64,000 nucleotides of DNA from an uncultured Desulfobacterales bacterium (GTDB taxonomy: Bacteria; Desulfobacterota; DSM-4660; Desulfatiglandales; HGW-15), in assembly GCA_964647905.1 (NCBI GenBank), contig CAZYJR010000020.1:577-64576 (forward strand), written 5' to 3'. Positions 4,286-47,408 of this stretch are shown in pieces (position 1 is the first letter of the stretch; each line of letters opens with the position of its first letter). The notes under the pieces were generated by a model that ran no database searches, was not told the DNA's origin, and worked only from the letters and a program-made list of their open reading frames with translations. The position numbers and the translations under genes were made by a program.

Positions 4286-4327
4286 CGGGCGGCTGAGGTC
4301 CGCAATAGGGCTCGCCGGCATTTACGG

Positions 4328-4498
4328 CTACCTGCTTTGCTCGCCGCTGATCCACTTGTCTATGGCTTCCTTGTCGAACCTCCACACTCTCCCGATACGA
4401 ATGGCCGGGATCTTTCCTTCTGCAGCATATTTGCATATTGTTATTTCGTGAAGTTTTAAGTATTTAGCAAGCTCTTTGGTCGTCATTATTTCTGGCAT
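4328..4498 (-). CDS. Small helix-turn-helix DNA-binding protein (excisionase/MerR-like HTH_17 type), 56 aa; below the ORF-track size cut-off
   Basis: Hand translation of the minus strand gives MPEIMTTKELAKYLKLHEITICKYAAEGKIPAIRIGRVWRFDKEAIDKWISGEQSR, with a TAG stop at 4328-4330. The T.KE.A.YL......I......G.IPA.RIG..WRF pattern is the excisionase-family HTH signature. The gene lies in a locally AT-rich patch. Confidence 0.6.
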   Translation of the reverse strand: MPEIMTTKELAKYLKLHEITICKYAAEGKIPAIRIGRVWRFDKEAIDKWISGEQSR

Positions 4499-4529
4499 AT
4501 TAAGCTCCTTACTATATCATCGACTGGAG

Positions 4530-5213
4530 ATGGCGCAGATGGCGAAATTAAGTATCATTATATATAATTCCCAAAAACAGCAAAGTCAACAAAAACCTGG
4601 TGCACTACTCGTGGCCTTGCTGCTCCTGGCCCTGGCGGCGCCCCCCGCCTTTTCGGCCGGCGCCTTCAGGGTGGATTTCGTGTGCGACGGGGACACGGTG
4701 ATCCTCGAGTCCGGGGAGACCGTCAGGTACATAGGGATCGACGCGCCCGAAATGGGAGACGAGGAGGTCCCGCCGGAGTTCCTCGCCCGGGAGTCCAGGG
4801 ACTTTAACCGAAGCCTGGTGGCCGGGCGTCCGATCCGGCTGGAGTTCGACCAAGAGAGGCGGGACCGCTACGGCCGACTGCTTGCATATCTTTATCCTGA
4901 GGACGGGGGCATGGTCAATCTGCTGCTGGTGAGAAGGGGGCTTGCCCGCGTGCTGGTGACCCCGCCCAATACGGCCCGCGCGCGGTCTCTCTTGGAGGCC
5001 CAGCGCAGGGCCATGAGGGCCGGGGTAGGTTTGTGGGGCCGGCCGGCTGAATCGGGAGGCGGTCCATATGTGGGGAGCAGAAGGTCCTATAGGTTCCATC
5101 GCCCCGGCTGTCCTTACGGCATGCGTATACGGGAGAGAAACCGGATCAAGTTCGAGAGCCGCAGGGATGCGTTTTGGGAGGGCTTCAGTCCCTGCAGAAA
5201 ATGCATGCCTTGA
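4530..5213 (+). CDS. Secreted thermonuclease (SNase-like) with a C-terminal Ada-like Cys4 metal-binding tail
   Basis: Signal-like segment GALLVALLLLALAAPPAFSAG. SNase motifs GDTVILESGETVRYIGIDAPE and RDRYGRLLAYLY. C-terminus YRFHRPGCPY ... FSPCRKC. The track ORF begins at 4476 but would overlap the HTH gene; Met codons at 4530 and 4539 are more plausible starts. Confidence 0.8.
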   Translation: MAQMAKLSIIIYNSQKQQSQQKPGALLVALLLLALAAPPAFSAGAFRVDFVCDGDTVILESGETVRYIGIDAPEMGDEEVPPEFLARESRDFNRSLVAGRPIRLEFDQERRDRYGRLLAYLYPEDGGMVNLLLVRRGLARVLVTPPNTARARSLLEAQRRAMRAGVGLWGRPAESGGGPYVGSRRSYRFHRPGCPYGMRIRERNRIKFESRRDAFWEGFSPCRKCMP

Positions 5214-5294
5214 CCGGATCGGACAGGGCCTTGACTGCCCGGCGGCCGGGGTCTATAACCCGAGTCCAGTCAAGCCGTTGCATTACCCGGGACG

Positions 5295-13863: not shown

Positions 13864-15798
13864 CTAAGATATTTCCGCGCATACCTCTCCGCTCCTGGAG
13901 GGGTCGTAACCTCCCAGTTCCTTTACCCGCTTGCGGAAACCCTCGGAGCGGATGGTCTCCAGCATGACCCCCAAGTTGGGCTCGTCCAGCCCGGAGGAAG
14001 GCACCACGAGCTGGTATTGCTCCCGGACCACCGGGATGAAGTCTAGATCCAAGGCCCTGGCTGCAGCCAATATGCCCATGCCGCAGTCGGCCGCTCCGGA
14101 GAGGACATCCACGGCCACCGCCATGTGCGTGAATTCCTCATGATCGTAGCCCCGGATCCGCTCGGGCCTCATCCCGCAAAGTGCCAGGCGATGATCCAGG
14201 AGCACCCGGGTGCCGGAACCGGCCTGCCTGTTCACGAAGGTTACCTCGTTTTCCGCCAGGTCCTCCAGGCCGCGAATACCCTTGGGGTTGCCCTTGGGGA
14301 CCATGAGGCCCTGTTCCCTCTCCACCAGGTGGAAGAGGGTGACCGGCTGGCTCTTGAGGTAGCGCTTGACATAGGGGATGTTGTACTCCCCTGTCTCCGG
14401 ATCCAGGAGGTGGGTCCCGGCCGCGTGGCAGTTCCCTTTCCTGACCGCCATGAGCCCCCCCAGACTCCCCACGTTTCCGGACGAGACCCTCAGATCGTGC
14501 CCCCTCTCTCGGATCTCGTCGGCCAGCAGGTCTAGGGTTATATCATGGCTTCCAATTATGATGATCGTCTTGTCCAGGTCTTCCTCGCTCACCAAGAGCT
14601 CTGCTTCCCCCTCCTCATCCTGGCCCACGCCTTCCGAGAGGGCGGGTATCCGAAGGATTCCTTCGGCCCTGGTCATGGTGGTTATGGATCCGGCGGCCCG
14701 CGGGAGTGGAGTGGCGACGCACCGGCCGCTTATCCTGCCTATGTTGACCCTGACGAACTCCTCTATTCCCGGCTTTGACGGGATGTCCCGTGAAGGGCGC
14801 ACCCTGACCGTGTCGGGCCGGGGAGCGGGAAGCCCCTGGAGGGCGAAGAGGAGGGGGCGGACGAACTGCTCGAAGGAGAGCGCGGCTGATACCGTGTAGC
14901 CGGGATTCCCCACCACCGGGGTCCCCCTTATATCGCCCAGTATGGTGGGCTTGCCGGGCATCATGGCCACCCCGTGAACCATTATCTCGCCCAAATCGCT
15001 TATCACCTTGGCGGTGTAATCCTTGCTGCCAGCAGAGGAACCGGCGTTCACCACTACCACGTCCGCCCCGGAAGCCAGCGCCCTCTCCACGGCCTCTCGT
15101 ATGGCCGGCTCATCGTCCGGGATGATCTCATGGACCGCGGCCGTTCCTCCGCATTCCTCCACCATGGCCGAGAGGGTGACGGAGTTGTACTCCAGTATCT
15201 TTCCCGGCGCGAGCCGGGGGGCGTCCTGCAGACCCCTGTGGGAGACAAGCTCCGAGCCAGTGGGGAGGATGGCAACCAAAGGTCTTTTCCACACCCGCAG
15301 GTCAAAGACGCCGGCGGATATGAGGGCCCCCATGTCCGAGGGGCGGATGCGGTGATTCCGGGGGAGCAGGAGTTGGGTGGCTACTATGTCCTCGCCCACT
15401 TTGCGCACGTTCTGCCAAGGGTGCGCGGGCGCGCGGATCTCCAGGTGCTCGCCGTCCACCTGGTGGAGCTTTTCCACCATGATCACGGCGTCGAAGCCCT
15501 CCGGCAGGATCTGCCCGGTGTTTATCCAGACCGCGTCTTTGCCTGTCTCCAGGATGCGGGGCCTTCTCTCCGTTGTCCCGTAGGTCTCTTGCGCCCTGAC
15601 AGCCACCCCGTCCATGGCGGCGGAATGGTAGTTCGGAGATGAGAGCCCGGCAAAGACGGTCTCAGCCGTGACCCGGCCGAGGGCCTTTTCCACGGGCACG
15701 GATTCCCCGGTGTTGAGGCTCGTGGTACCGAAACGCCCCAGAAAGAGTTCCCTGGCCTCCCGGAGCGGCTTCATGGCCAGATATACGTTTCTTTTCAA
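13864..15798 (-). CDS. moeA: Molybdopterin molybdenum/tungsten-transferase MoeA fused to a C-terminal periplasmic-binding-protein-like (PBP-like) domain
   Basis: 644 aa. MoeA motifs SPNYHSAAMDGVAVRA, ILPTGSELV, NAGSSAGSKDYT, VAMMPGKPT. About 230 extra C-terminal residues follow (IIIIGSHDITLDLLADE ... VNRQAGSGTRVLLD), typical of an anion-binding PBP-like domain. Confidence 0.85.
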   Translation of the reverse strand: MKRNVYLAMKPLREARELFLGRFGTTSLNTGESVPVEKALGRVTAETVFAGLSSPNYHSAAMDGVAVRAQETYGTTERRPRILETGKDAVWINTGQILPEGFDAVIMVEKLHQVDGEHLEIRAPAHPWQNVRKVGEDIVATQLLLPRNHRIRPSDMGALISAGVFDLRVWKRPLVAILPTGSELVSHRGLQDAPRLAPGKILEYNSVTLSAMVEECGGTAAVHEIIPDDEPAIREAVERALASGADVVVVNAGSSAGSKDYTAKVISDLGEIMVHGVAMMPGKPTILGDIRGTPVVGNPGYTVSAALSFEQFVRPLLFALQGLPAPRPDTVRVRPSRDIPSKPGIEEFVRVNIGRISGRCVATPLPRAAGSITTMTRAEGILRIPALSEGVGQDEEGEAELLVSEEDLDKTIIIIGSHDITLDLLADEIRERGHDLRVSSGNVGSLGGLMAVRKGNCHAAGTHLLDPETGEYNIPYVKRYLKSQPVTLFHLVEREQGLMVPKGNPKGIRGLEDLAENEVTFVNRQAGSGTRVLLDHRLALCGMRPERIRGYDHEEFTHMAVAVDVLSGAADCGMGILAAARALDLDFIPVVREQYQLVVPSSGLDEPNLGVMLETIRSEGFRKRVKELGGYDPSRSGEVCAEIS

Positions 15799-17099
15799 TC
15801 GCGATCTCCTGCTGCCGCCTTCCTCACCCCGCCGCGGAGGGCGCCCATTACATGGAAAGGCATCACCTCCACCACGGAGCCCTGGTAGAGCCCCTCGGTG
15901 AATCGGTCCACGCGCACCAGGCCGTCCGCCTCCACCAGTGGGGATATGAGGCCGGACTTACCGAACAGGGGCTCCGCAACCAGCCGCCTCTCAACGCTTA
16001 TCAATCTCACCCTGATGAAGTCGTCCCTGCCCTGGGCGGACTCGATGTTGCGGGCCAGTTCGGCCTCAACCCCTGGTATGCGGGGGGACGGCCAGTGCGC
16101 TTCACCGGCCAGCCGTCTTATGAAGGGGGAGAGAAGCACCTCGGCGACCACCAAGGCCGAGGCTGCGTGACCGGGCAGACCCCAGACCGTCTTGGCTCCC
16201 ATGCGGGCGAAGATCGTCGGCTTCCCCGGGCTTATGGAGACGCCGTGGGCCAGGATCTCCATGCCGGGAAAAGACTCCATCACCTGGACGGTCATGTCCC
16301 TGGTCCCCACCGAGCTCCCGCCCGAGATCCACAGAGAATCGGCCTTTTGGAGTCCCAGTTCCGCCTTCTCCCTCAAACTCTCGAACCGGTCCGGGGCCAG
16401 ACCCAGCACCACGGGCACCGCGCCCAGGGATCGACAGAATGCGGCCAGGGTATGGCTGTTCACGTCCCTTACCTCTCCCGGCCCCGGGGCTCGTTCCACC
16501 GGGACCACCTCGTCCCCGGTGGAGAGGACGGCCACCCTGGGCCGCCTGACCGCTGCGACTTCGGTCAAGCCGAGGCCGGCCAGGACTCCCACGTCCTGGG
16601 GCCTCAGCAGAGAGCCCCGGGTGAGCACCGTTTCGCCCCTCCTCACGTCGTCGTCGGGCTGGATAACGTTTTCCAGCGGGGAGACCGCACGGGCCACCTC
16701 AATGGTGCGCTGGTCAAGGCAGTGGCAATACTCTATCATGACCACGGCATCGGCGCCCGGAGGCAGCATTCCGCCGGTGGCGATCCTGACGGCCTGCCCC
16801 GCACCCACCTCCACTTCAGGGACGCGGCCCATGGAGACCTCTCCCGTGATCTCCAACAATGCAGGCAGGCTCTCTGTGGCCCCGAAGGTATCCTTGGCCC
16901 TGACCGCGAAACCGTCCATGGCTGAACGGCGGAAACCGGGCAGATCCTCCCCGGCCCCCACGTCGCGGGCCAGGGTGCGGCCGTAGGCCGTATCCAAGGG
17001 AACGGCCTCTTGGTCCAGGACCTGGAGATCTTCCATGATCGCGATTAGTTCCTCTATGGTCTTGAGGCGGAAGAACAAGCCCCCTCCTTGGAAATCCAC
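15795..17099 (-). CDS. moeA: Molybdopterin molybdenumtransferase MoeA (second paralogue)
   Basis: 434 aa with FRRSAMDGFAVRA, VLSTGDEVV, ISGGSSVGTRDMT, VSISPGKPT. A 4-nt stop/start overlap with the downstream moeA-PBP gene. Confidence 0.9.
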   Translation of the reverse strand: MDFQGGGLFFRLKTIEELIAIMEDLQVLDQEAVPLDTAYGRTLARDVGAGEDLPGFRRSAMDGFAVRAKDTFGATESLPALLEITGEVSMGRVPEVEVGAGQAVRIATGGMLPPGADAVVMIEYCHCLDQRTIEVARAVSPLENVIQPDDDVRRGETVLTRGSLLRPQDVGVLAGLGLTEVAAVRRPRVAVLSTGDEVVPVERAPGPGEVRDVNSHTLAAFCRSLGAVPVVLGLAPDRFESLREKAELGLQKADSLWISGGSSVGTRDMTVQVMESFPGMEILAHGVSISPGKPTIFARMGAKTVWGLPGHAASALVVAEVLLSPFIRRLAGEAHWPSPRIPGVEAELARNIESAQGRDDFIRVRLISVERRLVAEPLFGKSGLISPLVEADGLVRVDRFTEGLYQGSVVEVMPFHVMGALRGGVRKAAAGDRD

Positions 17100-21598: not shown

Positions 21599-21704
21599 TC
21601 AACGCCCTTATACCCCGGACGACTGGGGATTGTCAAAGCCGCGCCCACCGCCGGCCGTCCTCTTTCCAGCCCTGATGATCATCTCCTGCTGTGGAAAAAA
21701 TCGG

Positions 21705-21734
21705 TTGACAAAAATCTCTTTGCTGGATTAGGGT
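21705..21734 (+). promoter_or_regulatory. Possible sigma70-type promoter upstream of hdrA
   Basis: A perfect -35 hexamer TTGACA (21705-21710) is followed after 18 nt by TAGGGT (21729-21734), a weak -10. It lies about 60 nt upstream of the hdrA ATG. Pattern match only. Confidence 0.25.
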
Positions 21735-21794
21735 TACAGGTCTTGGGAAAAAAATCACGACCGTTTAACCCTACAGAATAAGGAGAGAAATTCC

Positions 21795-24700
21795 ATGCCG
21801 AAGGACATCAGGGGTTCCGTCATGGTCGTTGGTGGCGGCATCGCCGGGATGCAGGCGGCCCTGGATCTGGCCGATTCCGGCTATTACGTCTACCTGCTGG
21901 AGAAGTCCCCCTCCATCGGGGGGGCAATGGCCCAGTTGGACAAGACGTTTCCCACCAATGACTGTGCCATGTGAATTATCTCGCCCAAACTGGTCGAGGT
22001 CGGCCGGCACATGAATATCGAGCTGATCACCCTGGCCGAGCTCCAGGGCCTCAGCGGCAAAAAGGGAAACTTCGAGGTCAGCATACTCCAACACCCCCGG
22101 TTCGTGGATATGGAGAAGTGTATCGGATGCGGGACCTGCGCCGAGAAGTGCCCCAGAAAGGTGACCGACGAATACAACCAGGGCCTGGCCAAGAGAAAGG
22201 CCATCTATGTGCCCTATGCCCAGGCGGTCCCACTGAAGTACGCAATAGACAAGGATAACTGCATTTACTTCAAAAAGGGAAAGTGCAAGGCCTGCGAGAA
22301 GTTCTGCCCCACTCAGGCGATCAAGTTCGACGATCAGGAGAAGACCTTCACCCTGAACGTGGGCTCGGTAATACTCGCGCCCGGGTTCCAGGCCTTTGAT
22401 CCTGGCGCCTTTGACACGTACGGCTACGCCGGCCACCCGAACGTGGTGACCTCCATGGAGTTCGAGAGGATCCTCTCGGCCTCAGGTCCCACCACGGGGC
22501 ACCTGGTGCGGCCTTCGGACGAGAAAGAGCCCCGGAAGATAGCATTTCTACAATGCGTGGGCTCCAGGGACATCAATCGCTGTGATCACGGCTACTGCTC
22601 CGCGGTTTGTTGTATGTATGCGGTAAAGGAGGCCGTGATCGCCAAGGAGCACAGCGGGGACGGCCTGGACTGCGCCATTTTCTTCATGGACATGAGGACC
22701 CACGGTAAGGATTTCGAGCGGTACTATCGCAACGCCGAGGACAATCAGGGAGTCCGGTTCGTCCGCTCCAGGATCCACACCGTGCAGCCCGTGCAGGGAA
22801 GCGACGATCTGCTCATAAGATACACGGACGAAGAGGGCGGACTGGAGGAAGAGATCTTCGATTTGGCGGTCCTCTCCGTGGGCCTGGAGACGCCCCCGGA
22901 GCTCCGGGAGCTGGCGGGAAAGCTGGATCTGGAGCTCACTGAAGGCCTGTTCTGCAGCACCGGGAGCTTCACCCCGGTGGAGACCAGCCGTGAAGGGGTG
23001 TATGTCTGCGGCGTCTTTCAGGGACCAAAGGATATCCCCCAGTCGGTGATCGAGGCGAGCTCCGCGGCCGCCGTGGCGGGAGCGCCACTGAGCCCGGCCC
23101 GGGACACGGAGACCAGGACCCGGGAGGTGCCGGAGGAGCGGAACGTAATCGGTGATCCGCCGCGGATCGGGGTCTTTGTGTGCCGGTGCGGTGTGAATAT
23201 AGCCGGTGTGGTGGACGTTGACTCGGTGGTGGAGTACGCAAGGGGACTTCCTTATGTGGAGTACGTTGCGGACAACCTCTATTCATGCTCCCAGGACACC
23301 CAGGACAACATGGCCAAGGTGATCCGGGAAAACGACTTGAACCGCATCGTGGTGGCCGCGTGCACCCCCAAGACCCATGAGCCCTTGTTCCAAGAGACCC
23401 TGGTGGATGCCGGCCTGAACAAGTACCTCTTCGAGATGACCAATATCCGCAATCAGGACTCCTGGGTCCACAAGGACGACCCTGAAGCGGCAACAGAGAA
23501 GGCCAAGGATCTGGTCCGTATGGCGGTCTCCAAGGTCGCCCTGATGGAGCCCCTGAAGGAGGCCGAGCTGGACGTCAACCAGCGGGCCCTGGTCCTGGGA
23601 GGCGGGATCTCGGGGCTGGTTGCGGCCAAGACCCTCAGCTCGCACGGCTATGACGTAACCCTGGTGGAGCGGGGAGGGACCCTGGGAGGACAGGCCCTGA
23701 ACCTGTACAGGACCTGGAAGGGGGAGGACATACAAGAGAGACTGGGCGCCCTGGTGGAGGCCGTTGAAAAGGACGGCCGTATCGATGTGCGGTTGAACAC
23801 AGAGTTGGTCCAGGTGGACGGCTTTGTGGGGAACTTCGAGTCGGTTCTCTCCACCGGAGGCGATGAGAGCACAGTGGAGCACGGTGTGGCTATCCTGGCC
23901 ACGGGCGCACAAGAATTGAAGCCCGCGGAGTACCTATACGGGGAAGATCCCAGGGTGCTCACCCACCAGGACCTCGACCGCAGGTTCATACAGGAGGATC
24001 CGGCCCTGAGCGACGTCCGGAGCGCCGTTTTCATCCAGTGCGTGGGGTCCAGGGAGCCCGATCGCCCTTATTGCTCCAGGGTTTGCTGCACCCACTCGGT
24101 GGAAAGCGCCCTTCACCTCAAGGAGGTCAATCCCGAGATGCGGGTCTATATCCTCTACAGGGATATGCGGACCTACGGAGAAAAAGAGGTCGTCTACAAG
24201 AGGGCCAGGGAGGCCGGGGTGATCTTCGTGCGCTATGAACCGGAGCGCAAGCCCGTTGTCAAGGCGGGCAAGGAGAGTCTGGACATTGAGGTCTACGACC
24301 CGATCCTGGGCAGGCCCGTCCTGATACATGCGGATCTGCTGGCCCTGGCCGGGGCCATCGTTCCGTACAAGGACGAAGGGCTGGCCCGGTTCTTCAAAGT
24401 GGCCATGAACGAGGACGGCTTCTTCGTGGAGGCCCACGCCAAGCTGGCGCCTTCCGAGTTCGCAACGGACGGGGTCTTCCTGTGCGGCATGGCCCATTAC
24501 CCCAAGCCCATCGACGAGTCCATAGCCCAGGCCCAGGCGGCCTCCTCCCGGGCCATCACCCTGCTGGCCAGGAAGGCCATAGCCACGAGCGGGACCGTGG
24601 CCTATGCAAATCCGGCCATGTGCAGCAGTTGCGGTGTGTGCGTGTCCATATGCCCGTACGGTGCGCCCTCGCTGCTTAAGGAGGGGCCTTTTGCCGGACG

Positions 24701-24824
24701 CGCCGAGGTCAACCCCGTACTCTGCAAGGGCTGCGGCCTGTGCGTGGCTTCCTGCCGTTCCGGGGCCATAAATCTCAAGGGCTTTGAGACCGGGCAGATA
24801 ATGGCCATGATCGATCATATGTAA
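21795..24824 (+). CDS. hdrA: HdrA-like heterodisulfide reductase subunit A family flavoprotein, long form (~1009 aa), with in-frame TGA (predicted selenocysteine) at 21972-21974
   Basis: The ATG at 21795 is preceded by an AGGAGAG RBS. The N-terminus [35 protein letters not shown] ... [23 protein letters not shown] is in the same frame as track ORF 22011..24824. The TGA replaces the Cys of the HdrA motif TNDC.MC. There are multiple 4Fe-4S Cys clusters ([35 protein letters not shown]). A second dinucleotide-binding segment [15 protein letters not shown] lies near residue 600. Confidence 0.85.
21990..22007 (+). promoter_or_regulatory. Candidate bacterial SECIS stem-loop for the hdrA UGA
   Basis: CUGGUC (21990-21995) pairs with GGCCGG (22002-22007): 4 G-C/C-G pairs plus 2 G-U pairs. 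The apical loop is GAGGUC and contains GGUC. The hairpin starts 15 nt after the UGA. Folded by eye only. Confidence 0.4.
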
Positions 24825-24908
24825 GCGGACCGGAGCGCCCGGCAAGAGCGCTCCCGGATATGGTTACAACCACCAGGCGCTTGACGCGCCGAGGATGATT
24901 CATCGAGC

Positions 24909-24930
24909 GGTTTCGCTCCCGAGCGAAACC
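24909..24930 (+). promoter_or_regulatory. Intercistronic stem-loop between hdrA and mvhD
   Basis: GGTTTCGCT (24909-24917) / AGCGAAACC (24922-24930) forms a 9-bp perfect stem with the 4-nt loop CCCG (24918-24921). It lies just upstream of the mvhD RBS (AAGGAGAAAGG). A second imperfect hairpin lies at 24830-24857. Confidence 0.5.
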
Positions 24931-24946
24931 CGGCAAGGAGAAAGGC

Positions 24947-25378
24947 ATGACTGAGTGGGAACCGAAGATCACGGCGTTCTTGTGCAACTGGTGCACGTAC
25001 GGGGCGGCGGACCTGGCAGGGGTCAGCCGCATGCAGTACCCGCCCAACATCAGGGTGATCCGCGTGCCTTGCTCGGGGCGGGTGTCGCCCAAGTTCATTT
25101 TGGCCGCCTTCAGGCACGGCGCGGACGGCGTGTGGGTCTCGGGGTGACACCCCGGCGACTGCCATTACCTGGAAGGTAATTACTACGCCAGACGCAAGTT
25201 CGTGCTTTTCAAGAATCTACTGGAGCATATTGGGATCGAGCCTGGAAGGCTCCACTTCTCCTGGATTTCCTCGGCCGAGGCCACCAAGTTCGTGGATGTG
25301 GCCAGGGAGGTGATCCAGGCCGTGAAAGAGGCCGGGCCCGCCGGGCGTCTCATCAAAGGCAAAGCCGAGGTGGCATGA
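24947..25378 (+). CDS. mvhD: MvhD/FlxD-like (methyl-viologen-reducing hydrogenase delta subunit family) protein with in-frame TGA (predicted selenocysteine) at 25145-25147
   Basis: Track ORF 24947..25147 ends ...[11 protein letters not shown]. The same frame continues [18 protein letters not shown]...KGKAEVA to the TGA at 25376-25378, whose ATGA overlaps the next gene's start. The joined sequence reproduces the MvhD motif (V.GC.PG.CHY) with U in place of Cys. Confidence 0.85.
25164..25180 (+). promoter_or_regulatory. Candidate bacterial SECIS stem-loop for the mvhD UGA
   Basis: AUUACC (25164-25169) / GGUAAU (25175-25180) forms a perfect 6-bp stem with the loop UGGAA. It starts 16 nt after the UGA, nearly the same spacing as in hdrA. 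Folded by eye only. Confidence 0.4.
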
Positions 25379-26331
25379 TGATCGAGTACACTGAGAAGAT
25401 AAGGGTGCGGGCCAAGGACTTGCTGGAAAAGGGAACGGTGGACGTCTTCATAGGATACAAGAAGGGCACCGTTCCCATGATGAACGAGCCTGTCCTGGTG
25501 ACCGACCCGGACAAGGTGGACATTCTCCACTGGGACAGCAACTGCGGCCTGAACCTGTGCAACTATCTCACCGGCCGGAAGGACAAGGTGGGAATACTTG
25601 CCACCGGCTGCAACTCCCGCAACATCGTGACCCACGTAATAGAGAACCAGGTGCAGCGGGAGCAGCTCTACATACTGGGAGTGCCTTGCACCGGCGTCAT
25701 AAACCACCGGGCGGTCAAGCGCGCAGTGAAGTACAGGGAGATCAGGGAGGTGGTGGAGGAGCCGGGCGGGCGTTTCACGGTCAAGGGACCCGGCTACGAG
25801 GAGACTTTTGACAAGGCGAAGTTCCTGCAGCTCAATTGTTCGGTCTGCACACACCGCAATCCGGTGGAATATGACGAGCTGGTGGCCGAAGAAGTCCCCG
25901 AGCAGGAGGGAGTGAGCCCATTCAAGGACGTGGACAAGATCGAGGCCATGGACCCGGACAAGAAATGGGGTTTCTTCACCCGAATGATCTCGCCCTGCAT
26001 AAGGTGCTACGCCTGCCGGAACGCCTGTCCCCTCTGCTATTGCCCGACTTGCTTCGTGGACGAATCCAGGCCCCAGTGGGTGGGCAAGAGCGTGGACCCC
26101 ACGGACACCATGACTTTTCACTTCCTGCGGGCTTATCACTGCGCGGGCAGGTGCACGGACTGCGGGGCCTGCGAGCGGGTGTGTCCGGTGGGCATACCGG
26201 TGCGCCAGTTCACCAAGAAGCTGAACAAGGACGCCCTGGAGCTGTTCGGTTGGGAGGCGGGCCTGAGCCTGGAACAGAGGCCTCCCCTGGATGTGTACCG
26301 CGTGGGCGACTACAACGAATTCGTGCGGTGA
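25375..26331 (+). CDS. Iron-sulfur oxidoreductase subunit (4Fe-4S dicluster protein; FlxC / sulfhydrogenase-beta-like)
   Basis: 318 aa with Cys clusters CIRCYACRNACPLCYCPTCF and CTDCGACERVCPVGI. Translationally coupled to mvhD. Confidence 0.75.
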   Translation: MMIEYTEKIRVRAKDLLEKGTVDVFIGYKKGTVPMMNEPVLVTDPDKVDILHWDSNCGLNLCNYLTGRKDKVGILATGCNSRNIVTHVIENQVQREQLYILGVPCTGVINHRAVKRAVKYREIREVVEEPGGRFTVKGPGYEETFDKAKFLQLNCSVCTHRNPVEYDELVAEEVPEQEGVSPFKDVDKIEAMDPDKKWGFFTRMISPCIRCYACRNACPLCYCPTCFVDESRPQWVGKSVDPTDTMTFHFLRAYHCAGRCTDCGACERVCPVGIPVRQFTKKLNKDALELFGWEAGLSLEQRPPLDVYRVGDYNEFVR

Positions 26332-26382: not shown

Positions 26383-27432
26383 ATGAATGCAATGAGCACG
26401 AAACTGTTTGCCAAGGATGAGTGGGTCGGGGCCCTCCAGGGCCTGACCGGCTCCTACCGGGTTTTCGCCCCGGTCAAGGAAGGGGATTTTCATAACTTCA
26501 GGGTGCTGGAAAACGGCACTCGGCCGAGCTTTGACTTCCAGAACACCCGACTCTCGCCGAAGCGCTTCTCCCTCCCCCAGTCCGAGAGGATGTTCGAATA
26601 CTCCCTGGGAGGTGAACAGGATGCACACATCCTGAAGGAGGCGGACAAGGAATTACCTCCCCAAGCGGTGGTGGGGGTTCGGCCTTGCGATGCATATGCG
26701 TTCCAGTTGGTCAGGAGGAACTTCGACAACCCGGAGCACCGCGATCCATGGTGGGTGAGGCGATACGAGTCCACTACGTTCGTGGGCCTGGGGTGCAACG
26801 AACCTTGCACCACCTGCTTTTGCGCCTCGGCCGGAACCGGGCCTTTCGGACGCAAGGGCCTCGACGTCCTCCTCTTCGACCTGGGAGATGCTTACCTGGC
26901 CAAGGGGCTTACCGACAAGGGCGAGGAGCTCCTTGGCAAGCTGGACGGGGGGAAGGAGGCGGACCAGGCCTCGGTCAAGAAGGCGGAGTCACTGACCCGC
27001 CAAGCCGCTTCCAAGTTCGACTCCAGGGTCCCTACGGACAAGCTGGGGGAAAAGGTGGTGACCGAGCTCTTTGATGCGCCTTTTTGGGAAGAGGTGGCCT
27101 TTGCCTGCATCAACTGCGGCACTTGCACCTATCTCTGCCCCACATGCTGGTGCTTCGACATCCAGGACGAGGTCCGACCCCTGAGACAGGAAGGGGACCG
27201 AATCAGGAACTGGGATTCGTGCATGTTTCCCCTGTTCACGCTTCACGGCTCAGGGCATAATCCCAGGGCGGACAAGACGGCTCGGGTAAGGCAGCGGTTC
27301 ATGCACAAGCTCAAGTATTACGTGGACAAGTACCGCGACGGGATCCAGTGCGTCGGCTGCGGGAGATGCATCCAGTTCTGCCCGGTAAACATTGACATCC
27401 GCGAGGTGGCCCGGCGGATAAACGACTTCTGA
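26383..27432 (+). CDS. Iron-sulfur oxidoreductase subunit (4Fe-4S dicluster protein; FlxB / AsrA / sulfhydrogenase-beta-like)
   Basis: 349 aa with CTTCFCASAG, CINCGTCTYLCPTCWCFD and CVGCGRCIQFCPVNI. The start may be the Met at 26392. Confidence 0.75.
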   Translation: MNAMSTKLFAKDEWVGALQGLTGSYRVFAPVKEGDFHNFRVLENGTRPSFDFQNTRLSPKRFSLPQSERMFEYSLGGEQDAHILKEADKELPPQAVVGVRPCDAYAFQLVRRNFDNPEHRDPWWVRRYESTTFVGLGCNEPCTTCFCASAGTGPFGRKGLDVLLFDLGDAYLAKGLTDKGEELLGKLDGGKEADQASVKKAESLTRQAASKFDSRVPTDKLGEKVVTELFDAPFWEEVAFACINCGTCTYLCPTCWCFDIQDEVRPLRQEGDRIRNWDSCMFPLFTLHGSGHNPRADKTARVRQRFMHKLKYYVDKYRDGIQCVGCGRCIQFCPVNIDIREVARRINDF

Positions 27433-27521
27433 GAATGCCTTGTGCGGTCCGGTGCGCACCCAAACGGTCTCCCGGGCGGGGCGCACCAGGGACGAACATA
27501 ATTGATACAGGGGGTGTTCCA

Positions 27522-28364
27522 TTGGAAAATCCGTATCTTCCATATCCGGTTTGGATAGACCGCATCGTAACCGAGACCGAGGACAAGAACCTCAAGACTT
27601 TTGATCTGGTCTTCCTGGAGTCCGGAGACGAGGCCAAGTTCGCTTATACGCCCGGCCAGTTCGCCGAGCTCTCCATCGCAGGGCAGGGGGAGATCCCCAT
27701 AGGTATAGCCTCCTCGCCTACTGAGAAGGGCTTCATCAGGTTCACCGTGAACAAGGTGGGCAAGGTGACCTCCCATCTCCACAGCATGAAGGAAGGGGAC
27801 ATCATGGGAGTGCGCGGTCCCCTGGGAAACTGGTATCCTTGGGAGGAGATGGAAGGCAGGAACGTGGTGATCATAGGCGGCGGGTTCGCCTTCACCACCC
27901 TCCGGTCCAGCATTGTGTACATGCTGAACCCTGACAATCGGGAGAGATTCAAGGATATTACCGTGGTCTACGGGGCCCGGTCGCCCGGGATGCTCCTCTA
28001 CAAGGAGGAGCTCATGGATTGGGAGAAGCGCGACGACCTGGAGATGCACATCACGGTTGACGCCACGGACGACCCGGATTGGAAGTACAATGTGGGATTC
28101 GTACCTCAGATCACCGAGGAGAAGATCACCAGCTCGGATGACGCCATGGCCATCGTGTGCGGACCTCCGATAATGATCCGCTTCACGCAGCCGGTTCTGG
28201 AAAAGCTGGGCTTTCCGCCGGAACGCATCATACTCTCACTGGAAAACCGCATGAAATGCGGTATAGGCATGTGCGGCAGGTGCAACATAGGCGATCAGTA
28301 CGTATGCAAGGACGGGCCGGTCTTTTCCCTGGCCAAGCTGAAGGAGCTTCCCCCGGACTACTGA
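27522..28364 (+). CDS. FAD/NAD(P)-binding oxidoreductase with a C-terminal 2Fe-2S site (FlxA / HydG / PyrK-like)
   Basis: Ferredoxin-reductase-type fold: FAYTPGQFAELSI, VVIIGGGFAFTTLRS, and C-terminal CGIGMCGRCNIG..YVCKDGPVF. The proposed start is TTG at 27522 (ENPYLPYP...), after a purine-rich ACAGGGGG. The track ORF begins at 27435 and overlaps upstream sequence. Confidence 0.8.
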   Translation: MENPYLPYPVWIDRIVTETEDKNLKTFDLVFLESGDEAKFAYTPGQFAELSIAGQGEIPIGIASSPTEKGFIRFTVNKVGKVTSHLHSMKEGDIMGVRGPLGNWYPWEEMEGRNVVIIGGGFAFTTLRSSIVYMLNPDNRERFKDITVVYGARSPGMLLYKEELMDWEKRDDLEMHITVDATDDPDWKYNVGFVPQITEEKITSSDDAMAIVCGPPIMIRFTQPVLEKLGFPPERIILSLENRMKCGIGMCGRCNIGDQYVCKDGPVFSLAKLKELPPDY

Positions 28365-28407: not shown

Positions 28408-28761
28408 ATGGCCAAGAAGACACCCATAACCTTTGTGGCTCAAGGCACCCGTTTCCAGGGGGACATCCACAGTGATGCACGGATAGTGGTGGAAGGGACC
28501 GTGGAGGGAAACGTCCGCTGCATGGAGATGACCATCGCTCCGTCCGGACGCGTGGTGGGCGATTTGCAGGCAGCCTCCCTGGCTGTGGCCGGGACCTACA
28601 AGGGGAACCTGGTGGCCCACCGCAGGGTCACGATCCACGCAACGGGCTCGGTGGAAGGGGGCTTGTTCACCCGCACCCTGGTGGTGGAGGAGGGCGGACG
28701 CATGAACGGCGACATCAAGGTGATGACCTCGATGGATGAGTTCCCTGAAGTGATCTCTTGA
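28408..28761 (+). CDS. Bactofilin (polymer-forming cytoskeletal protein, DUF583)
   Basis: 117 aa with a repetitive beta-helix pattern: FQGDIHSDARIVVEGTVEGNV...GRVVGDLQAASLAVAGTYKGNLVAHRRVTIHATGSVEG. Confidence 0.85.
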   Translation: MAKKTPITFVAQGTRFQGDIHSDARIVVEGTVEGNVRCMEMTIAPSGRVVGDLQAASLAVAGTYKGNLVAHRRVTIHATGSVEGGLFTRTLVVEEGGRMNGDIKVMTSMDEFPEVIS

Positions 28762-28785: not shown

Positions 28786-30282
28786 CTATATGTCCTCTCC
28801 CCGGGAATGGGTCTGCCGGAGCCCCGAAAGAGTCTCCCAGATCTCTTTCACCTGCCTCCGGGTCTCTTCCATACTCCCGCTGTTGTCTATTACGAAATCG
28901 GCGTAGCCCGGCTTCTCTTCTATGGGGAGCTGGGCGCGGAGCATGTTGGAAGCCTCTTCTTCGCTGATGCCGTCCCTTGCAGCCAGCCTCCGGATCTGCT
29001 CCTCGGCGGGAATGTAGACGACCAGGATCTTGTGGAACATGTACTGGAGGTTTAGCTCCAAGAGCAGCGGCACCGCCACCTGGATCACCGAGCCGGGTCT
29101 CCGGGAGGCTATCTCGTTCACCCGGCGGGCGAACCGCTCGAAGATCCTTGGGTGAGTGAACGACTCCAGCTTCTTTCTCTTTTCCATGTCCCGGAACACT
29201 ATGGACGAGAGCCTCTTGCGGTCCAGGCGTCCGTCTTCGGACAGGACCTGCTTCCCGAAGTACTCCACTATCTCCCGGTAGGCGGGTTGTCCCGGCTCCA
29301 CCACTTCCTTGGCGATTACGTCGAAGTCGATCATGGGCGCTCCCAGCTCCTCCAGCATGGATGAGACCGTGCTCTTGCCGCTGGCGATCCCCCCGGTCAC
29401 GCCGACGAGCAGCCGGCCGTCCTCGCCCCGGATCTCCTTTGCGGTCCGCTCCAAGCGGGTGTAGGCCGTGGGGAGCAGGGCGTATACGTCCGACTCGGCT
29501 CCTGCAAAGCTGATGGGGTATCGGATCCCGCGGCGGTAGAGGGACTCGAGCCCCCTGACCGCCTTTTCCACCGCCCGGGCGGGGAGGGCCATTACCAGTT
29601 CGTCGTCCTGGGCATGGCCGTATCTCCTCTCTCCGTAGCAGGGAATGGTGAGCTTGGGTCTGTCCTCCAGGTAGCATCTGGCCAATGCGTCCGCGCACGA
29701 AGTCTCTCCCACGCAGGAGAACTCCATGACCTCGTAGTCCTCGAACTGGAGCGCGTTGATCAGCAGTATCACTTGGGCGGGGTTGCCGTAGATGAGCACG
29801 ATATCCGGCTCAAAGGGATCGTAGACCAGCGGGGCCATTACCACGGCCTGGTATTTCCCGAGGGGGAGGTGAGGGATGGAGCTTTCATACTTCTTGCCGT
29901 CCTCCCGGCACTTGACCCAGACAATGCTCCTGAAGGTGCCGTCCATGTAAATGCCGGGCTTCTCCCTGAGCCCCAGCATGGCGGGGCACGAGGGAAGGGC
30001 GAAATCCGCGTCCTCCGCCCCCACGGTCCAATCGAAGTTCCGGACCAGGTTTATCATCTGGCAAAGCGTCAGGTTCCTCTCCGGTCGCCTGAGAAACGGG
30101 ATGGTCTCCAGATCCTCCTTGTTGTCCAGCATCTTGAAGGCCACGGGAAAGGAACGGAGTCTGAGCAGTCGTTCGAGCTTCTTGACCAACGGTTCCCACT
30201 TGGCGGTCTCTCCCATCGCGTTCGGCTCCTTCTGTTTCCGATGAGGGCTTCGAATCGCGCAGCAGTCATCGGGTGCGGTCAT
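28786..30282 (-). CDS. coaE: Fusion protein: N-terminal DUF169 domain + C-terminal dephospho-CoA kinase (CoaE)
   Basis: A single 498 aa frame. The N-terminal half resembles DUF169 (FPVAFKML...LTLCQMI...LPSCPAMLGLRE). The C-terminal half is CoaE (LLVGVTGGIASGKSTVSSMLEELGAPMIDFDVIAKEVV...). There is no stop and no ATG/GTG/TTG start codon directly ahead of the P-loop. Confidence 0.75.
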   Translation of the reverse strand: MTAPDDCCAIRSPHRKQKEPNAMGETAKWEPLVKKLERLLRLRSFPVAFKMLDNKEDLETIPFLRRPERNLTLCQMINLVRNFDWTVGAEDADFALPSCPAMLGLREKPGIYMDGTFRSIVWVKCREDGKKYESSIPHLPLGKYQAVVMAPLVYDPFEPDIVLIYGNPAQVILLINALQFEDYEVMEFSCVGETSCADALARCYLEDRPKLTIPCYGERRYGHAQDDELVMALPARAVEKAVRGLESLYRRGIRYPISFAGAESDVYALLPTAYTRLERTAKEIRGEDGRLLVGVTGGIASGKSTVSSMLEELGAPMIDFDVIAKEVVEPGQPAYREIVEYFGKQVLSEDGRLDRKRLSSIVFRDMEKRKKLESFTHPRIFERFARRVNEIASRRPGSVIQVAVPLLLELNLQYMFHKILVVYIPAEEQIRRLAARDGISEEEASNMLRAQLPIEEKPGYADFVIDNSGSMEETRRQVKEIWETLSGLRQTHSRGEDI

Positions 30283-40135: not shown

Positions 40136-41164
40136 ATGAGCCCATTGGAGGACATCGCTGCGAGCCGGGAGGGCGCCCGGGGGTTGGTGGACGGAAACAA
40201 CCGCGAAATCAACTACCTGCGTGTCTCACTGACCGATCGCTGCAACCTGAGATGCATTTACTGTATGCCGCCCGAAGGGATTCGGCCTCTTCCCCACGGC
40301 GAGATCCTGACATACGAGGAGATCCTTCACGTGGTGCGCCTGGCCGTCAGCGGGGGCATACGCAAGGTCAGGCTCACAGGCGGCGAGCCGCTGGTCCGCA
40401 GGGAGGTCATGGGCTTCATCCGCCGCTTGGTGGAGCTCCCCGGCCTGGAGCAGGTGACCCTGACCACCAACGGGGTCCTGCTGGCTGAATGCGCGGGGGA
40501 GCTCAGGGACCGCGGTGTGACAGGGGTCAACGTCAGCCTGGACTCACTGCGCCCGGAACGCTTCGCCAAGATCACCAGAAGGGATCTCTTTCATCGCGTT
40601 CGGGACGGGCTGCTGGAGGCGGAGCGGGTGGGGTTCCGCTCCATCAAGATCAATGTGGTGGCCATGCGGGGCATAAACGACGATGAGATACTGGATTTCG
40701 CCCGGTTGAGCCTAGAGAGGCCTTATCACGTCCGGTTCATAGAGTTCATGCCGGTAGGACTGGAAAACGGCTGGAACGACGACAGGTTCATACCAGCAGG
40801 CGAGATCCGGGAGCGGATACAAGAGGTCGGACCGCTCCGCCCCCTGGTTCACAGGCCCCTGGACGGACCCGCGGAGCGGTTCATGCTGGAGGGCGCCCGT
40901 GGAGAGCTGGGCTTCATAGCCGCTCTCTCGCACCATTTCTGCACCTTGTGTAACCGACTCCGCCTGACGCCGGAGGGGCACTTGAGGGGGTGCCTGTTCT
41001 CGGACCAGGAGATCGATCTGAAAGGCCCCATGCGGGCCGGTACATCGGACGAGGCCCTCATGGAGCGGATCCTGTATGCCGTGGAGAGCAAGCCCGGGTG
41101 GCACGGCCGCCTGGTGAACGCCCCCCGCAAGTGCACGCGGCCCATGTCCTCCATCGGGGGCTAG
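40136..41164 (+). CDS. moaA: GTP 3',8-cyclase MoaA (radical SAM)
   Basis: LRVSLTDRCNLRCIYCMP radical-SAM cluster motif, RLTGGEPL, and the C-terminal second-cluster region CTLCNRLRLTPEGHLRGCL. Confidence 0.95.
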   Translation: MSPLEDIAASREGARGLVDGNNREINYLRVSLTDRCNLRCIYCMPPEGIRPLPHGEILTYEEILHVVRLAVSGGIRKVRLTGGEPLVRREVMGFIRRLVELPGLEQVTLTTNGVLLAECAGELRDRGVTGVNVSLDSLRPERFAKITRRDLFHRVRDGLLEAERVGFRSIKINVVAMRGINDDEILDFARLSLERPYHVRFIEFMPVGLENGWNDDRFIPAGEIRERIQEVGPLRPLVHRPLDGPAERFMLEGARGELGFIAALSHHFCTLCNRLRLTPEGHLRGCLFSDQEIDLKGPMRAGTSDEALMERILYAVESKPGWHGRLVNAPRKCTRPMSSIGG

Positions 41165-43083
41165 GTCCCGGAGTCCGGCCCTTGCCCACCTCCTCCGCCC
41201 AGGATCATCCTCCTGTCCCCGGACGCCAGCAGCGGGGCCTGAAGCCTTACCGGCTCTCCTATGTCCTTGAAGAGCAGGTCGCCTTCCCCCAGGAGGTTTT
41301 CCGCCCCCCTCATCCCCAGGAGCATATTGGATTCAATGGGCTTGTTCATCTTGAACGCGGCCCTGGCCGGGATGTTTGCATCCAACGCCCCCTTTACCAC
41401 TTCCCGGCTGGGCTGCTGGGTGGCCATGAGCAGGTGTATGCCCGCCGACCTGGCCTTGGCCCCGATCCTGAAAACCAGGGATTCGACCTCGCGCCGCTCG
41501 GAACGGCCCCTGCTCACCAGGTCCGCGTATTCGTCGCAGATGCAGACGATCCTGGGCTCCACCCGCCCGGTGCGGATCATGTACTCCCCCAGGTCATCCG
41601 CTCCGCACTCCTGCAGGAGGCGGTAGCGGCGTTCCATCTCCTCGGCCATGGCGGAGAAGGCGTTTGGGGCCGGCTCCTCGTCGGGAAACACCAGGGCCCG
41701 GTCATTGAGGAGGAACGGGGATTCCGCCATGTCGTTGAAGGCGGTGCGTTTGGGATCGATCAGGACCAGCCTCAGGGTCTCCGGCGTGTTGGTGATAACC
41801 AGCCCGGCCAGCACCGACCTGAGCCATTCGCTCTTTCCGCTCCCGGTGGTGCCTGCGGCCAGGATATGGCAGTTTTCAGGCTGGGATAGGTCGGCGGAGA
41901 CCAGGTCTCCCTCCAAGTCCACCCCCAGGATGATCCTGGAGCAGCCCCGGCTCGATCTCCAGGATTCGAGCTCCGAGCGGATCCGAGCAAAGTCGACCAC
42001 CTCTCTGTCCGCTCGCTGGAGATCGGCCACCACCCTGCCGTCCGATATGTGGACCAGCGGCGGTGCGCTGAGCTTCAACCTGTGCTGCACCTCCCTGGCC
42101 ACCTTCCGGACCCCCTGGATGGTGACCCCCTTTTCCAGCTTCAGCGGGTAGCGCACAAAGGTGGGCCCTTCCACCGGGGGGCCGTCAATGGAGACCGGCC
42201 TGCCGTACTCACGGAAGATGGCGGCCAGCCGTTCGCCCTGCTCGTGGTGGGCCGGGGACTGTTCCGGCTCGCTCGAGGACACGGCGGCCGGGGGTTGTTC
42301 CTCCGGCGCTGGTCGAGCCACGCCGCTCCTCGGCCCGGGCGAGACCCCGGCAAGCACGCCGATCAGGGATACCAGCTTCTGCTGGGTCTTTCTCAGCTCG
42401 GGACCGGAAAACAGGATCTCTTCCATTTCCGGCCTAAAGGCGACCAAGGCGGCTGGGCCCTGGGATTCCGGTCGGTTGGATCTGGTCAGGATGAGATGAT
42501 ACAAAGCTGCCTGAGCCAGGTCCGCCTCAGGGCAGCCCATGCCCAGCTTGAGCTCCACCAGGCACCAGCCCGGGCGGCCAGGGATCCTGATCACCAGGTC
42601 CGCCAGCCCGGTCAATCGCACGGCATCGCTCCATTGAGGCATACGCAGCCCCAAGCTGAGGCGCTCGTCGGGGAAGAGCTTGATGCGGGCGCCGGGGCCC
42701 TTCTCAAAGTGGTCGCCGGCCTCCCATAGCAGGTCCACCATCCACCGGTTGAGGTTCTTGGCCGCTTCCCAGAGGGCGAGCACCCCGTCCGCAGACCCGT
42801 GCAGGCGGGCCTGCTCCCGTCCCAGGCGGGGGCCTATCAGCCGCTCGTAGATATGAGTCTCCAGGGCCCGGCGCCAGGCCTCCTTGTGAGGGGGTGTATC
42901 GCGCACCGCCTCCTGCCAGGAGCAGGGATGCCGGGGGCTGAAGAGTGAGGAAAAGGACTCGTGGAATATGCTCCCCAGGAGGCGGGCGGCGTGCACGGGG
43001 AGACGCTCGCCGCCCCCCTCCCCGCAGCCTGCACCTTGATAAACGGCCCTTCTGACTTCGCTTACCGAAAGCCTCACCGGCAT
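41161..43083 (-). CDS. Fusion protein: N-terminal RecB/Cas4-type PD-(D/E)xK nuclease domain + FtsK/SpoIIIE-type DNA-translocase ATPase domain
   Basis: 640 aa. Nuclease motif set: GSIFHESF ... GLADLVIRI(13 aa)CLVELKLG ... QAALYHLIL (D / ExK / QxxxY). After a Pro-rich linker come FtsK motor features: GPTFVRYPLKLEKGV, Walker A ILAAGTTGSGKSEW, Walker B IVCICDEYADL, LLMATQQPS. No TM segments were seen. Confidence 0.8.
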   Translation of the reverse strand: MPVRLSVSEVRRAVYQGAGCGEGGGERLPVHAARLLGSIFHESFSSLFSPRHPCSWQEAVRDTPPHKEAWRRALETHIYERLIGPRLGREQARLHGSADGVLALWEAAKNLNRWMVDLLWEAGDHFEKGPGARIKLFPDERLSLGLRMPQWSDAVRLTGLADLVIRIPGRPGWCLVELKLGMGCPEADLAQAALYHLILTRSNRPESQGPAALVAFRPEMEEILFSGPELRKTQQKLVSLIGVLAGVSPGPRSGVARPAPEEQPPAAVSSSEPEQSPAHHEQGERLAAIFREYGRPVSIDGPPVEGPTFVRYPLKLEKGVTIQGVRKVAREVQHRLKLSAPPLVHISDGRVVADLQRADREVVDFARIRSELESWRSSRGCSRIILGVDLEGDLVSADLSQPENCHILAAGTTGSGKSEWLRSVLAGLVITNTPETLRLVLIDPKRTAFNDMAESPFLLNDRALVFPDEEPAPNAFSAMAEEMERRYRLLQECGADDLGEYMIRTGRVEPRIVCICDEYADLVSRGRSERREVESLVFRIGAKARSAGIHLLMATQQPSREVVKGALDANIPARAAFKMNKPIESNMLLGMRGAENLLGEGDLLFKDIGEPVRLQAPLLASGDRRMILGGGGGQGPDSGT

Positions 43084-45887: not shown

Positions 45888-46250
45888 CGCCACCTCCCCG
45901 GCGCCTCCGACGGCCGATTCCCACCCCGGGCCGTGGCGGGGATCATCTTTAAGACAAGTCGAAACATACCACCGCACCTAAAATCCCTGCAAGGCAAAAG
46001 CGGGTGGGATAGCTTTCCCTCCCTGTAACCTTACCGTTGTCCTTGTGCGCCGGGTTGCCATCAACCCGCGTGATGTATGTCCTTGCAAAATTGAGGCTTG
46101 CTTTGATCATCCCTAATGGGTACTATGCTCGCATCTATGCATGCTTTCTTAGGATTTGGATAGCGATTTTGCCGCACTAGCGAGGGAGCTATGCCTCAAG
46201 GCGCACCCAAAGCCCCATTTCTCATGAGAGACGTGGGGCTTTGCGTTATG

Positions 46251-46548: not shown

Positions 46549-46597
46549 TTCGACAGACCAATACCCAGCCTTGGTTTAAGGCCGAAAAGGTGGTAAA

Positions 46598-46894: not shown

Positions 46895-46896
46895 AC

Positions 46897-47097: not shown

Positions 47098-47207
47098 GGG
47101 GATAGGAACTTGCTTTTTAGGTAGCAGGATAGCGGAAGGCATCTTTGGGTGTCAACAAGAAACGCCTAAACTTGTTCCGCTGGACGCGCTCCGAACTTCC
47201 GGCGGAC

Positions 47208-47337: not shown

Positions 47338-47408
47338 TACCCAATAAACCACTTGACAACATGACCTCTAAAATGTGCACGTGAATGCACATTATAAGGA
47401 GATATGAT

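Follow-up and report, generated by a model that had tools for sequence, protein, structure and literature searches.

A probable selenocysteine codon with a conserved downstream hairpin in an mvhD-like gene adjoining hdrA in an uncultured Desulfobacterales bacterium

Does the mvhD-like gene that lies beside an hdrA-like gene in an uncultured Desulfobacterales bacterium end at an early TGA, or is this codon read as selenocysteine (Sec)? The question was raised by a stretch of 64,000 nucleotides (nt) of contig CAZYJR010000020.1 (assembly GCA_964647905.1), hereafter the window, in which a first reading of the letters (the original prediction) had placed a UGA-encoded Sec followed by a hairpin. We conclude, from the reading frame and from comparison with related genes, that positions 24947..25378 of the plus strand very probably encode a single 143-residue adaptor of the MvhD/FlxD type, predicted to be a [2Fe-2S] subunit, in which the UGA at 25145..25147 (plus strand) would be read as Sec67 and replace the first cysteine of the motif GCHPGDCHY.

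The frame opens with an ATG at position 24947, located 6 nt after an AAGGAG that resembles a Shine-Dalgarno sequence (24935..24940, plus strand; read from the sequence), and meets its first TGA at 25145-25147 right after ...ADGVWVSG. Past this codon, it remains open for 76 codons until the TGA at 25376-25378, a stop that shares letters with the start codon of the following gene (ATG at 25375) in an ATGA; the interrupted open reading frame (ORF, 24947..25147) and its continuation were both as first described. The joined product comprises 66 residues, the predicted Sec in G-U-H-P-G-D-C-H-Y and 76 further residues. With a cysteine put in for the UGA codon, this product matched PF02662 (FlpD/MvhD) with an E-value of 1.2e-54 and 183.9 bits compared to a cut-off of 22.3, over positions 1-123 of the 123 of the profile and residues 8-130 of the protein, spanning the UGA. 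The MvhD subunit of the Mvh-Hdr complex (PDB 5ODC_D) was matched with an E-value of 4.8e-51 over residues 1-132, together with three further solved MvhD/VhuD proteins (7BKB_F, 8RVU_F and 9SW2_D). Residues C13, C16, C42, U67 and C72 are the counterparts of the five conserved cysteines (CxxC ... C ... CxxxxC) of these four proteins, and the 66-residue product alone lacks two of the five. The original prediction had assigned a signature common to MvhD and VhuD. The MvhD part was borne out by PF02662 and 5ODC_D, whereas the VhuD part was not: the NCBIfam VhuD model NF045873 gave 137.1 bits, below its cut-off of 215, and no mvhA/mvhG (vhuA/G/U) hydrogenase genes were found as neighbours. By NCBIfam score, the predicted protein is a MvhD/FlxD-type adaptor of an Hdr/Flox-like cluster and not a VhuD equivalog.

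We aligned the product with the best 120 out of thousands of homologues from a database search (139-165 residues, 76-85% identical). The UGA column was occupied by cysteine in 120 of these 120 sequences, as in the solved MvhD. A natural end of the homologues at this position had been named at the outset as an argument against recoding, and none of the 120 ends there, all being full-length at about 143 residues. Because Sec forms are cut short by gene callers, the set is biased; it establishes cysteine as invariant in this column and says nothing on how rare Sec forms are. The same homologues bear on the possibility of a split gene, made of a 66-residue N-terminal fragment and of a C-terminal fragment translated from an internal start codon. 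An internal ORF with a GTG start is present (25202..25378, 58 residues), but translation from this GTG, 18 codons beyond the UGA, would leave out the invariant motif HPGDCHY, the start is preceded by no evident ribosome-binding site, none of the 120 homologues is split and the domain is a single fold in the solved structures. A split gene is extremely improbable on these grounds.

The TGA codon itself was then considered. Identical TGA codons were found in the Logan assemblies of five separately assembled runs (SRR7048218, SRR7048219, SRR7048220, SRR7048227 and SRR7048228), whose contigs were 99.9-100% identical to the window with 0 mismatches in the mvhD region, which rules out an isolated error of sequencing or assembly. 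A TGC or TGT misread as TGA could be supposed at any position of any sequence and has nothing specific in its favour here; the co-occurrence of hairpin-specific codons with the TGA also speaks against it. The probability left to such an error is close to nil, in line with the original expectation. The recurrence of the codon was scanned in one reference genome per species with the pattern GGN-TGA-CAY-CCN-GGN-GAY-TGY-CAY-TA. At least 119 genome stretches matched, compared to about 0.3 expected by chance from the degeneracy of the pattern. Among the matches listed, 124 of 124 read on in frame as MvhD-like proteins; their genomes include members of the phyla Desulfobacterota, Bacillota and Cloacimonadota, with Desulfobacterales, Desulfatiglandales, Syntrophobacterales, Desulfarculales, Peptococcaceae, Syntrophomonadaceae, Moorellales, Cloacimonadota and others as lineages, and the closest of them is from a metagenome-assembled Desulfatiglandales genome, with 86% amino-acid identity to the window MvhD. 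A crude scan of the window for ORF pairs joined by one TGA gave only positions 21972 and 25145 with a recognisable protein context, the remaining pairs looking like GC-rich off-frame noise.

Downstream of the UGA, the original prediction had described a 6-bp hairpin, AUUACC-UGGAA-GGUAAU, starting 16 nt after the codon. Its position, sequence and 16-nt spacer (25148-25163) were as described, but its length was not, since RNAfold lengthened the stem to 7 bp with a GGA triloop. The resulting upper stem-loop, AUUACCU-GGA-AGGUAAU (25164..25180, plus strand; loop at nt 27-29, the U of UGA being nt 1), resembles a selenocysteine insertion sequence (SECIS). RNAfold also proposed a weak, optional outer stem (GGCG at 25154-57 with CGCC at 25186-89; 25154..25189 overall, plus strand), for which the pair tables of 66 class-A, 50 class-B (both classes are defined below) and 118 Cys-form sequences gave no consistent conservation or Sec-specific signal. 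The GC content of the window is 61% and the GC content at third codon positions of mvhD is 0.82. The codons of the stem are rare in the window, with CAU used for 28% of His, GGU for 8.5% of Gly, AAU for 27% of Asn and GAA for 23% of Glu. From the codon usage of the window, the joint probability of the four codon choices required by the stem is about 0.004, and 0.0005 with Leu and Glu included.

To what extent the hairpin is tied to Sec was assessed with 121 distinct Sec-form and 118 distinct Cys-form sequences drawn from different collections, the Cys forms being fetched by the same pattern with TGY in place of TGA. Counting stems of 7 bp or more, free of interruptions and placed within nt 13-42 after the codon, we found one in 88% of the Sec forms and in 6% of the Cys forms, the latter share being equally long stems borne by chance. 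The local minimum free energies of the two sets differed with a Mann-Whitney p of 9e-22, and the contrast in stems persisted in each band of identity to the window protein. In the Sec forms, the His and Gly codons of the stem were linked almost without exception (CAU with GGU in 66 sequences, CAC with GGC in 51; Fisher p = 3.6e-30), whereas in the Cys forms they were independent (p = 0.21). Four distinct close Cys orthologues (P0001, P0004, P0006 and P0071; 78-85% amino-acid identity) had no hairpin and encoded the same or nearly the same peptide through other codons, as in CAC UAC CUG GAG GGG AAU; at 81-85% identity, the codons were CAC/GAG/GGG or GGC/AAC. Among the sequences that share the hairpin form of the window, four synonymous sites in the stem were invariant (66/66) while the synonymous sites of six flanking codons were free to vary, with minor alleles at 27-50%, so that the invariance cannot be put down to common descent. 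The RNAalifold consensus of 64 sequences was exactly the window hairpin. Its innermost pair 26:30 was U-A in 45 sequences, A-U in 16 and broken in 3, and covaried through amino-acid changes, CUG-GAA or CUG-UCA giving U-A and CAG-GUU or CAG-UCU giving A-U. Taken together, the stem frequencies, the constraint on synonymous sites and the covarying pair bear out the proposed link to Sec, and they support the predicted hairpin as a conserved feature of Sec-form mvhD genes that is absent from Cys-form genes.

The hairpins of Sec-form mvhD genes were of two mutually exclusive forms, both located within the conserved peptide D-C-H-Y-x-x-G-N. Class A, which includes the window (n = 66), is formed by the pairs A20-U36 to N26-N30, with the core CAUUACC-N5-GGUAAU and the loop at nt 27-29, and requires the codons CAU for His, UAC for Tyr, GGU for Gly and AAU for Asn. 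Class B (n = 50) is formed by the pairs U16-A34 to A23-U27, with the core UGCCACUA-UGN-UAGUGGCA and the loop at nt 24-26, and requires CAC for His, UAU for Tyr, AGU for Ser and GGC for Gly. Among the Sec-form loci (L006-L124), class A was found in Desulfobacterales, Desulfatiglandales, Syntrophobacterales, Syntrophorhabdus, Cloacimonadota and Delongbacteria, and class B in Bacillota (Peptococcaceae, Syntrophomonadaceae, Moorellales, Desulforudis) and in Desulfarculales. In a few Desulfarculaceae sequences with the peptide YIAGN, the upper stem was weaker and the outer stem strong instead.

The gene upstream offers a second case. The first gene of the cluster is hdrA-like and codes for an HdrA-type flavoprotein (21795..24824, plus strand; 1009 codons including one in-frame UGA), and its product matched the NCBIfam HdrA/HdrA2 models in three stretches with an E-value of 5e-251. 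It ends 122 nt upstream of mvhD on the same strand, an arrangement shared with related loci. On translation, its UGA (21972..21974, plus strand) falls at the canonical HdrA Sec site (..TNDCAM-U-IISPK..), and HdrA is listed as a CxxU selenoprotein (PMC13188914). The motif with TGA recurs in 15 other loci upstream of a Sec-form mvhD. A SECIS-like hairpin, CUGGUCG-AGGU-CGGCCGG (21990..22007, plus strand), starts 15 nt after the UGA; this 18-nt sequence was nearly invariant in the 15 other Sec-form hdrA genes, in most of which RNAfold predicted the hairpin. In the window, the minimum-energy structure of RNAfold differs from it, and for this reason the hdrA element was assigned from the conserved sequence and not from the window fold. 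The claims that the adjacent hdrA is recoded too and that its spacing, 15 nt, compares with the 16 nt of mvhD were upheld, the former at the canonical Sec site and both with the conserved hairpin. In 13 other loci, a Cys-form hdrA stood upstream of a Sec-form mvhD, and in the orthologous cluster of contigs resembling Syntrophobacter fumaroxidans a Sec-form hdrA preceded a Cys-form mvhD. Each position thus changes between Sec and Cys regardless of the other, which is what Sec/Cys pairs would lead one to expect. In two of these contigs (L247/L248), the Sec-form hdrA and the Cys-form mvhD after it lie at 2886-6432, and this hdrA was split by gene callers into 68 and 932 residues. The hdrA of the window is also far longer than the archaeal HdrA (roughly 650 residues) and contains two GxGxxG dinucleotide-binding sites. 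These two sites and the three stretches matched by the HdrA models make it look duplicated or fused, as in BamE and in some Syntrophobacter HdrA.

Could mvhD instead be a pseudogene, inactivated by a nonsense mutation from TGY to TGA, with a downstream frame that has yet to decay? A change from TGC or TGT to TGA involves a single base, so that occasional nonsense mutations at Cys codons are expected, and the gene is called as a fragment of 66 residues in all five public assemblies. Against decay stand the 76 downstream codons, which are intact, highly conserved and part of a full-length Pfam match, and the presence of TGA at the same codon in the genome stretches of several phyla counted above. 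The accompanying hairpin is kept by selection on synonymous sites, the overlap of the stop with the next start preserves translational coupling and hdrA shows a like pattern. A pseudogene is, on balance, highly improbable.

A way of reading the UGA is suggested by the pathway established in bacteria. The hairpin at 25164-25180, within the coding sequence, would act as a bacterial SECIS for the UGA at 25145-25147 and would recruit SelB-GTP-Sec-tRNA(Sec) to the ribosome paused at this codon; the weak termination context UGA-C may help Sec insertion. SelB dependence and actual selenium incorporation at this UGA are proposed here by analogy with that pathway. Bacterial SECIS elements have a similar spacing between UGA and stem and a G-containing apical loop. 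That of Escherichia coli fdhF, for instance, is a stem-loop within the ORF that follows the UGA closely and has a G in its small apical loop. Its geometry is comparable to that of the window hairpin (16-nt spacer, 7-bp stem, GGA loop), but the latter shares no sequence similarity with it, has no bulged U and has no Rfam match.

Several observations weigh against Sec insertion at this codon or against the hairpin as its signal. Folded alone, the window hairpin was not significant in energy (z = -1.08 over 71 nt), and for this reason its significance was taken from the comparative evidence and from codon usage. No Rfam family, SECIS included, was found at the gathering score in the whole window or at E-values up to 10 over 21700-25500, where the hits were to unrelated families at chance level. 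To our knowledge, bacterial SECIS elements are too short and variable for curated RNA models, and the Rfam miss was therefore given little weight. The Sec and Cys sets, from different collections, are not paired one to one by phylogeny. Classical covariation is limited to one pair, complemented by the argument from synonymous sites, because, of the seven stem pairs, six are constant throughout the class. Finally, none of selA, selB and selD was found by NCBIfam or Pfam among the 38 ORFs scanned in the window, and no tRNA-Sec, nor any tRNA at all, was found in the 64 kb. That hdrA is a second recoded gene speaks indirectly for a genome with Sec machinery.

The lack of Sec machinery in the window also favours a read-through of the UGA that makes no use of Sec, either by near-cognate Cys or Trp insertion or by a generic read-through hairpin, with the Sec pathway lacking or unused, and UGA-C is an established leaky context for termination. 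On the other side, an established selenoprotein family is known to have either Sec or Cys at this position (PMC13188914, PMC4989117), the geometry of the hairpin, with its 16-nt spacer and its short apical loop containing G, matches that of the hdrA element, relatives with such genes encode selABCD (PMC2702500), and UGA is otherwise a normal stop here, the end of mvhD itself being a TGA. We consider this read-through very unlikely, and the four alternatives (pseudogene, non-Sec read-through, sequencing error and split gene) are unlikely even when taken together.

Reading of the UGA as Sec also agrees with what is known of the family, whose status as a selenoprotein family had been put forward in the original prediction and is supported by the literature. 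MvhD/FrhD/VhuD (PF02662) and HdrA are both among the experimentally verified prokaryotic selenoproteins (PMC13188914), and co-located hdrA-frhD selenoprotein genes occur in Deltaproteobacteria (PMC13188914, PMC9312934). Desulfobacterium autotrophicum HRM2 has four Sec-form mvhD genes adjoining hdrA or hdrL, together with selABCD (PMC2702500). Like the window protein, the deltaproteobacterial Sec-form MvhD proteins (mvhD1, 2, 3 and 5 of D. autotrophicum HRM2; FrhD/MvhD of S. fumaroxidans) belong to PF02662 and are encoded directly downstream of a Sec-containing hdrA or hdrL, in a similar kind of organism. A Sec-form mvhD with a hairpin core, CAUUACCUGGAAGGUAAU, identical to that of the window was present on the S. 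fumaroxidans-like contig L247, whereas in the orthologous Hdr/Flox cluster of S. fumaroxidans-like contigs mvhD is of the Cys form, unlike the window where hdrA and mvhD are both of the Sec form. On L247/L248 (2060-2510), a second mvhD lies next to hdrL, with an in-frame TGA and a class-A hairpin, and is called as a fragment of 67 residues. The mvhD of the window is thus an ordinary case, the expected Sec gene of a family already known in sulfate-reducing bacteria.

Downstream, mvhD is followed on the plus strand by two genes for FlxB/C-like iron-sulfur (Fe-S) proteins and one for a FlxA-like flavoprotein. The first (25375..26331) codes for 318 residues with a Fer4_8 domain and is the same neighbour in the orthologous loci (L245-L251). 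The second (26383..27432; 349 residues, Fer4_22) resembles sulfhydrogenase beta/AsrA, and the third (27435..28364; 309 residues) codes for a HydG/AsrB-like Fe-S flavoprotein binding flavin adenine dinucleotide (FAD) and nicotinamide adenine dinucleotide (phosphate) (NAD(P)), with FAD_binding_6, NAD_binding_1 and DHODB_Fe-S_bind domains; both are conserved neighbours. The gene order around mvhD is conserved in L245-L251 and fits the description of the S. fumaroxidans Hdr/Flox cluster (PMC5947623). The same gene set is found in FlxABCD-HdrABC, or Hdr-Flox, of Desulfovibrio vulgaris and S. fumaroxidans (Sfum_1970-1977) (PMC5947623), the common part being hdrA, an MvhD-like FlxD, two Fe-S proteins and a FAD/NAD(P) flavoprotein. 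Unlike FlxABCD-HdrABC, the window cluster has no hdrB/hdrC after the flx-like genes, and its hdrA, of about 1009 residues, is of an apparently duplicated form. No hdrB/hdrC (CCG-domain) genes were found among the window ORFs scanned, and a bactofilin gene (28408-28761) comes next. Related Hdr/Flox loci (L246-L248) hold hdrC/hdrB-like genes (Fer4 plus CCG) where the window has bactofilin. The window cluster thus lacks the catalytic subunits of heterodisulfide reductase.

The cluster hdrA(Sec)-mvhD(Sec)-FeS-FeS-FAD/NAD would form an Hdr/Flox-like module with mvhD translationally coupled. In such modules, MvhD passes single electrons between the subunits on the NAD(P)H side and the bifurcating flavoprotein HdrA. 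By homology to solved complexes, MvhD has one [2Fe-2S] cluster and exchanges electrons with the bifurcating FAD of HdrA (PMC6019823, PMC13518236). The archaeal VhuD/MvhD proteins of Mvh(Vhu)ADG-HdrABC are likewise [2Fe-2S] adaptors of this family docking on HdrA, and all five conserved Cys positions of the structures (5ODC chain D; Methanococcus maripaludis VhuD, 9SW2 chain D) align with the window protein. Unlike the archaeal Vhu/Mvh systems, no mvhA or mvhG hydrogenase genes lie near the window mvhD, and its SECIS would be inside the coding region, as is typical of bacteria, whereas the archaeal type lies in the 3' untranslated region. The archaeal VhuD contains two Sec about 50 codons apart (PMC4989117), a spacing that fits positions 16 and 67 of the window MvhD; it is consistent with one Sec at position 67, although the window protein has one Sec and not two. 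The archaeal Sec positions are not settled by the PDB sequences because C is printed at both candidate positions of VhuD.

Another Sec-containing [2Fe-2S] adaptor homologous to MvhD is BamF, from the class II benzoyl-CoA reductase of Geobacter metallireducens; its docking partner is a bifurcating subunit that resembles HdrA and consists of a fused HdrA dimer (preprint 10.64898/2026.04.10.717634). BamF differs from the window MvhD in being more than 100 residues longer and in its Sec19, which lies near the N-terminal Cys motif and not at the GCHPGDCHY position, and no bamB-I genes were found in the window. The Sec at residue 19 corresponds to a cysteine of the methanogenic MvhD near [2Fe-2S] that forms a disulfide (preprint 10.64898/2026.04.10.717634). 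Together with the spacing in VhuD, it suggests that residue 67 is a cluster ligand. Which four of the five cysteines ligate [2Fe-2S] was not settled by the open literature, the BamF preprint and the VhuD spacing being indirect hints. By analogy with these proteins, Sec67 probably ligates the [2Fe-2S] cluster or sits adjacent to it, and the extra, non-ligand cysteine appears to be the N-terminal one, which is Sec in BamF. A joint reading, in which two lineage-split SECIS classes imply lineage-specific co-evolution of SelB and Sec67 is a direct selenolate ligand of [2Fe-2S], is put forward tentatively, as we hold it possible but fall short of calling it probable.

Other features of the window were noted. 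A tandem pair of genes for MoeA-like molybdopterin molybdotransferases, of which one is a long form of 644 residues, and moaA are located at 13864-17099 and 40136-41164, so that genes for molybdenum/tungsten cofactor biosynthesis share the neighbourhood of the Hdr/Flox cluster. An ORF of 498 residues on the minus strand (28786-30282) fuses DUF169 (COG2043) to dephospho-CoA kinase (CoaE). A low-GC island at 46001-48000 (45% compared to about 61%) contains small ORFs only and adjoins the genes for a FtsK/TraB-like translocase (41161-43083, minus strand) and an AAA_16/AAA_22 ATPase (43093-44982, minus strand); it may be a mobile or defence island. Within a second stretch of low GC (58001-62000, 45-47%), the minus strand encodes an IS1634-family transposase (59505-61199).

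The mvhD case of the window leaves the knowledge of selenoproteins unchanged, and its main value lies in mending an annotation that had been cut short. A modest gain besides is a SECIS that comes in two forms, divided among lineages and lodged in a conserved peptide; its codon signatures, CAU-UAC-NNN-NNN-GGU-AAU or CAC-UAU-NNN-AGU-GGC, could be used to flag a Sec-form mvhD with its SECIS in metagenomes. The comparison of Sec and Cys forms also offers a clean natural case in which an RNA structure within a coding region is kept through selection acting on synonymous sites. Correct gene calling matters here for metabolic reconstruction and for selenoproteome counts: as public calls truncate mvhD to 66 residues and split hdrA, the Hdr/Flox-type electron-bifurcation module looks broken, whereas in this uncultured relative of sulfate reducers it is probably intact and selenium-dependent.

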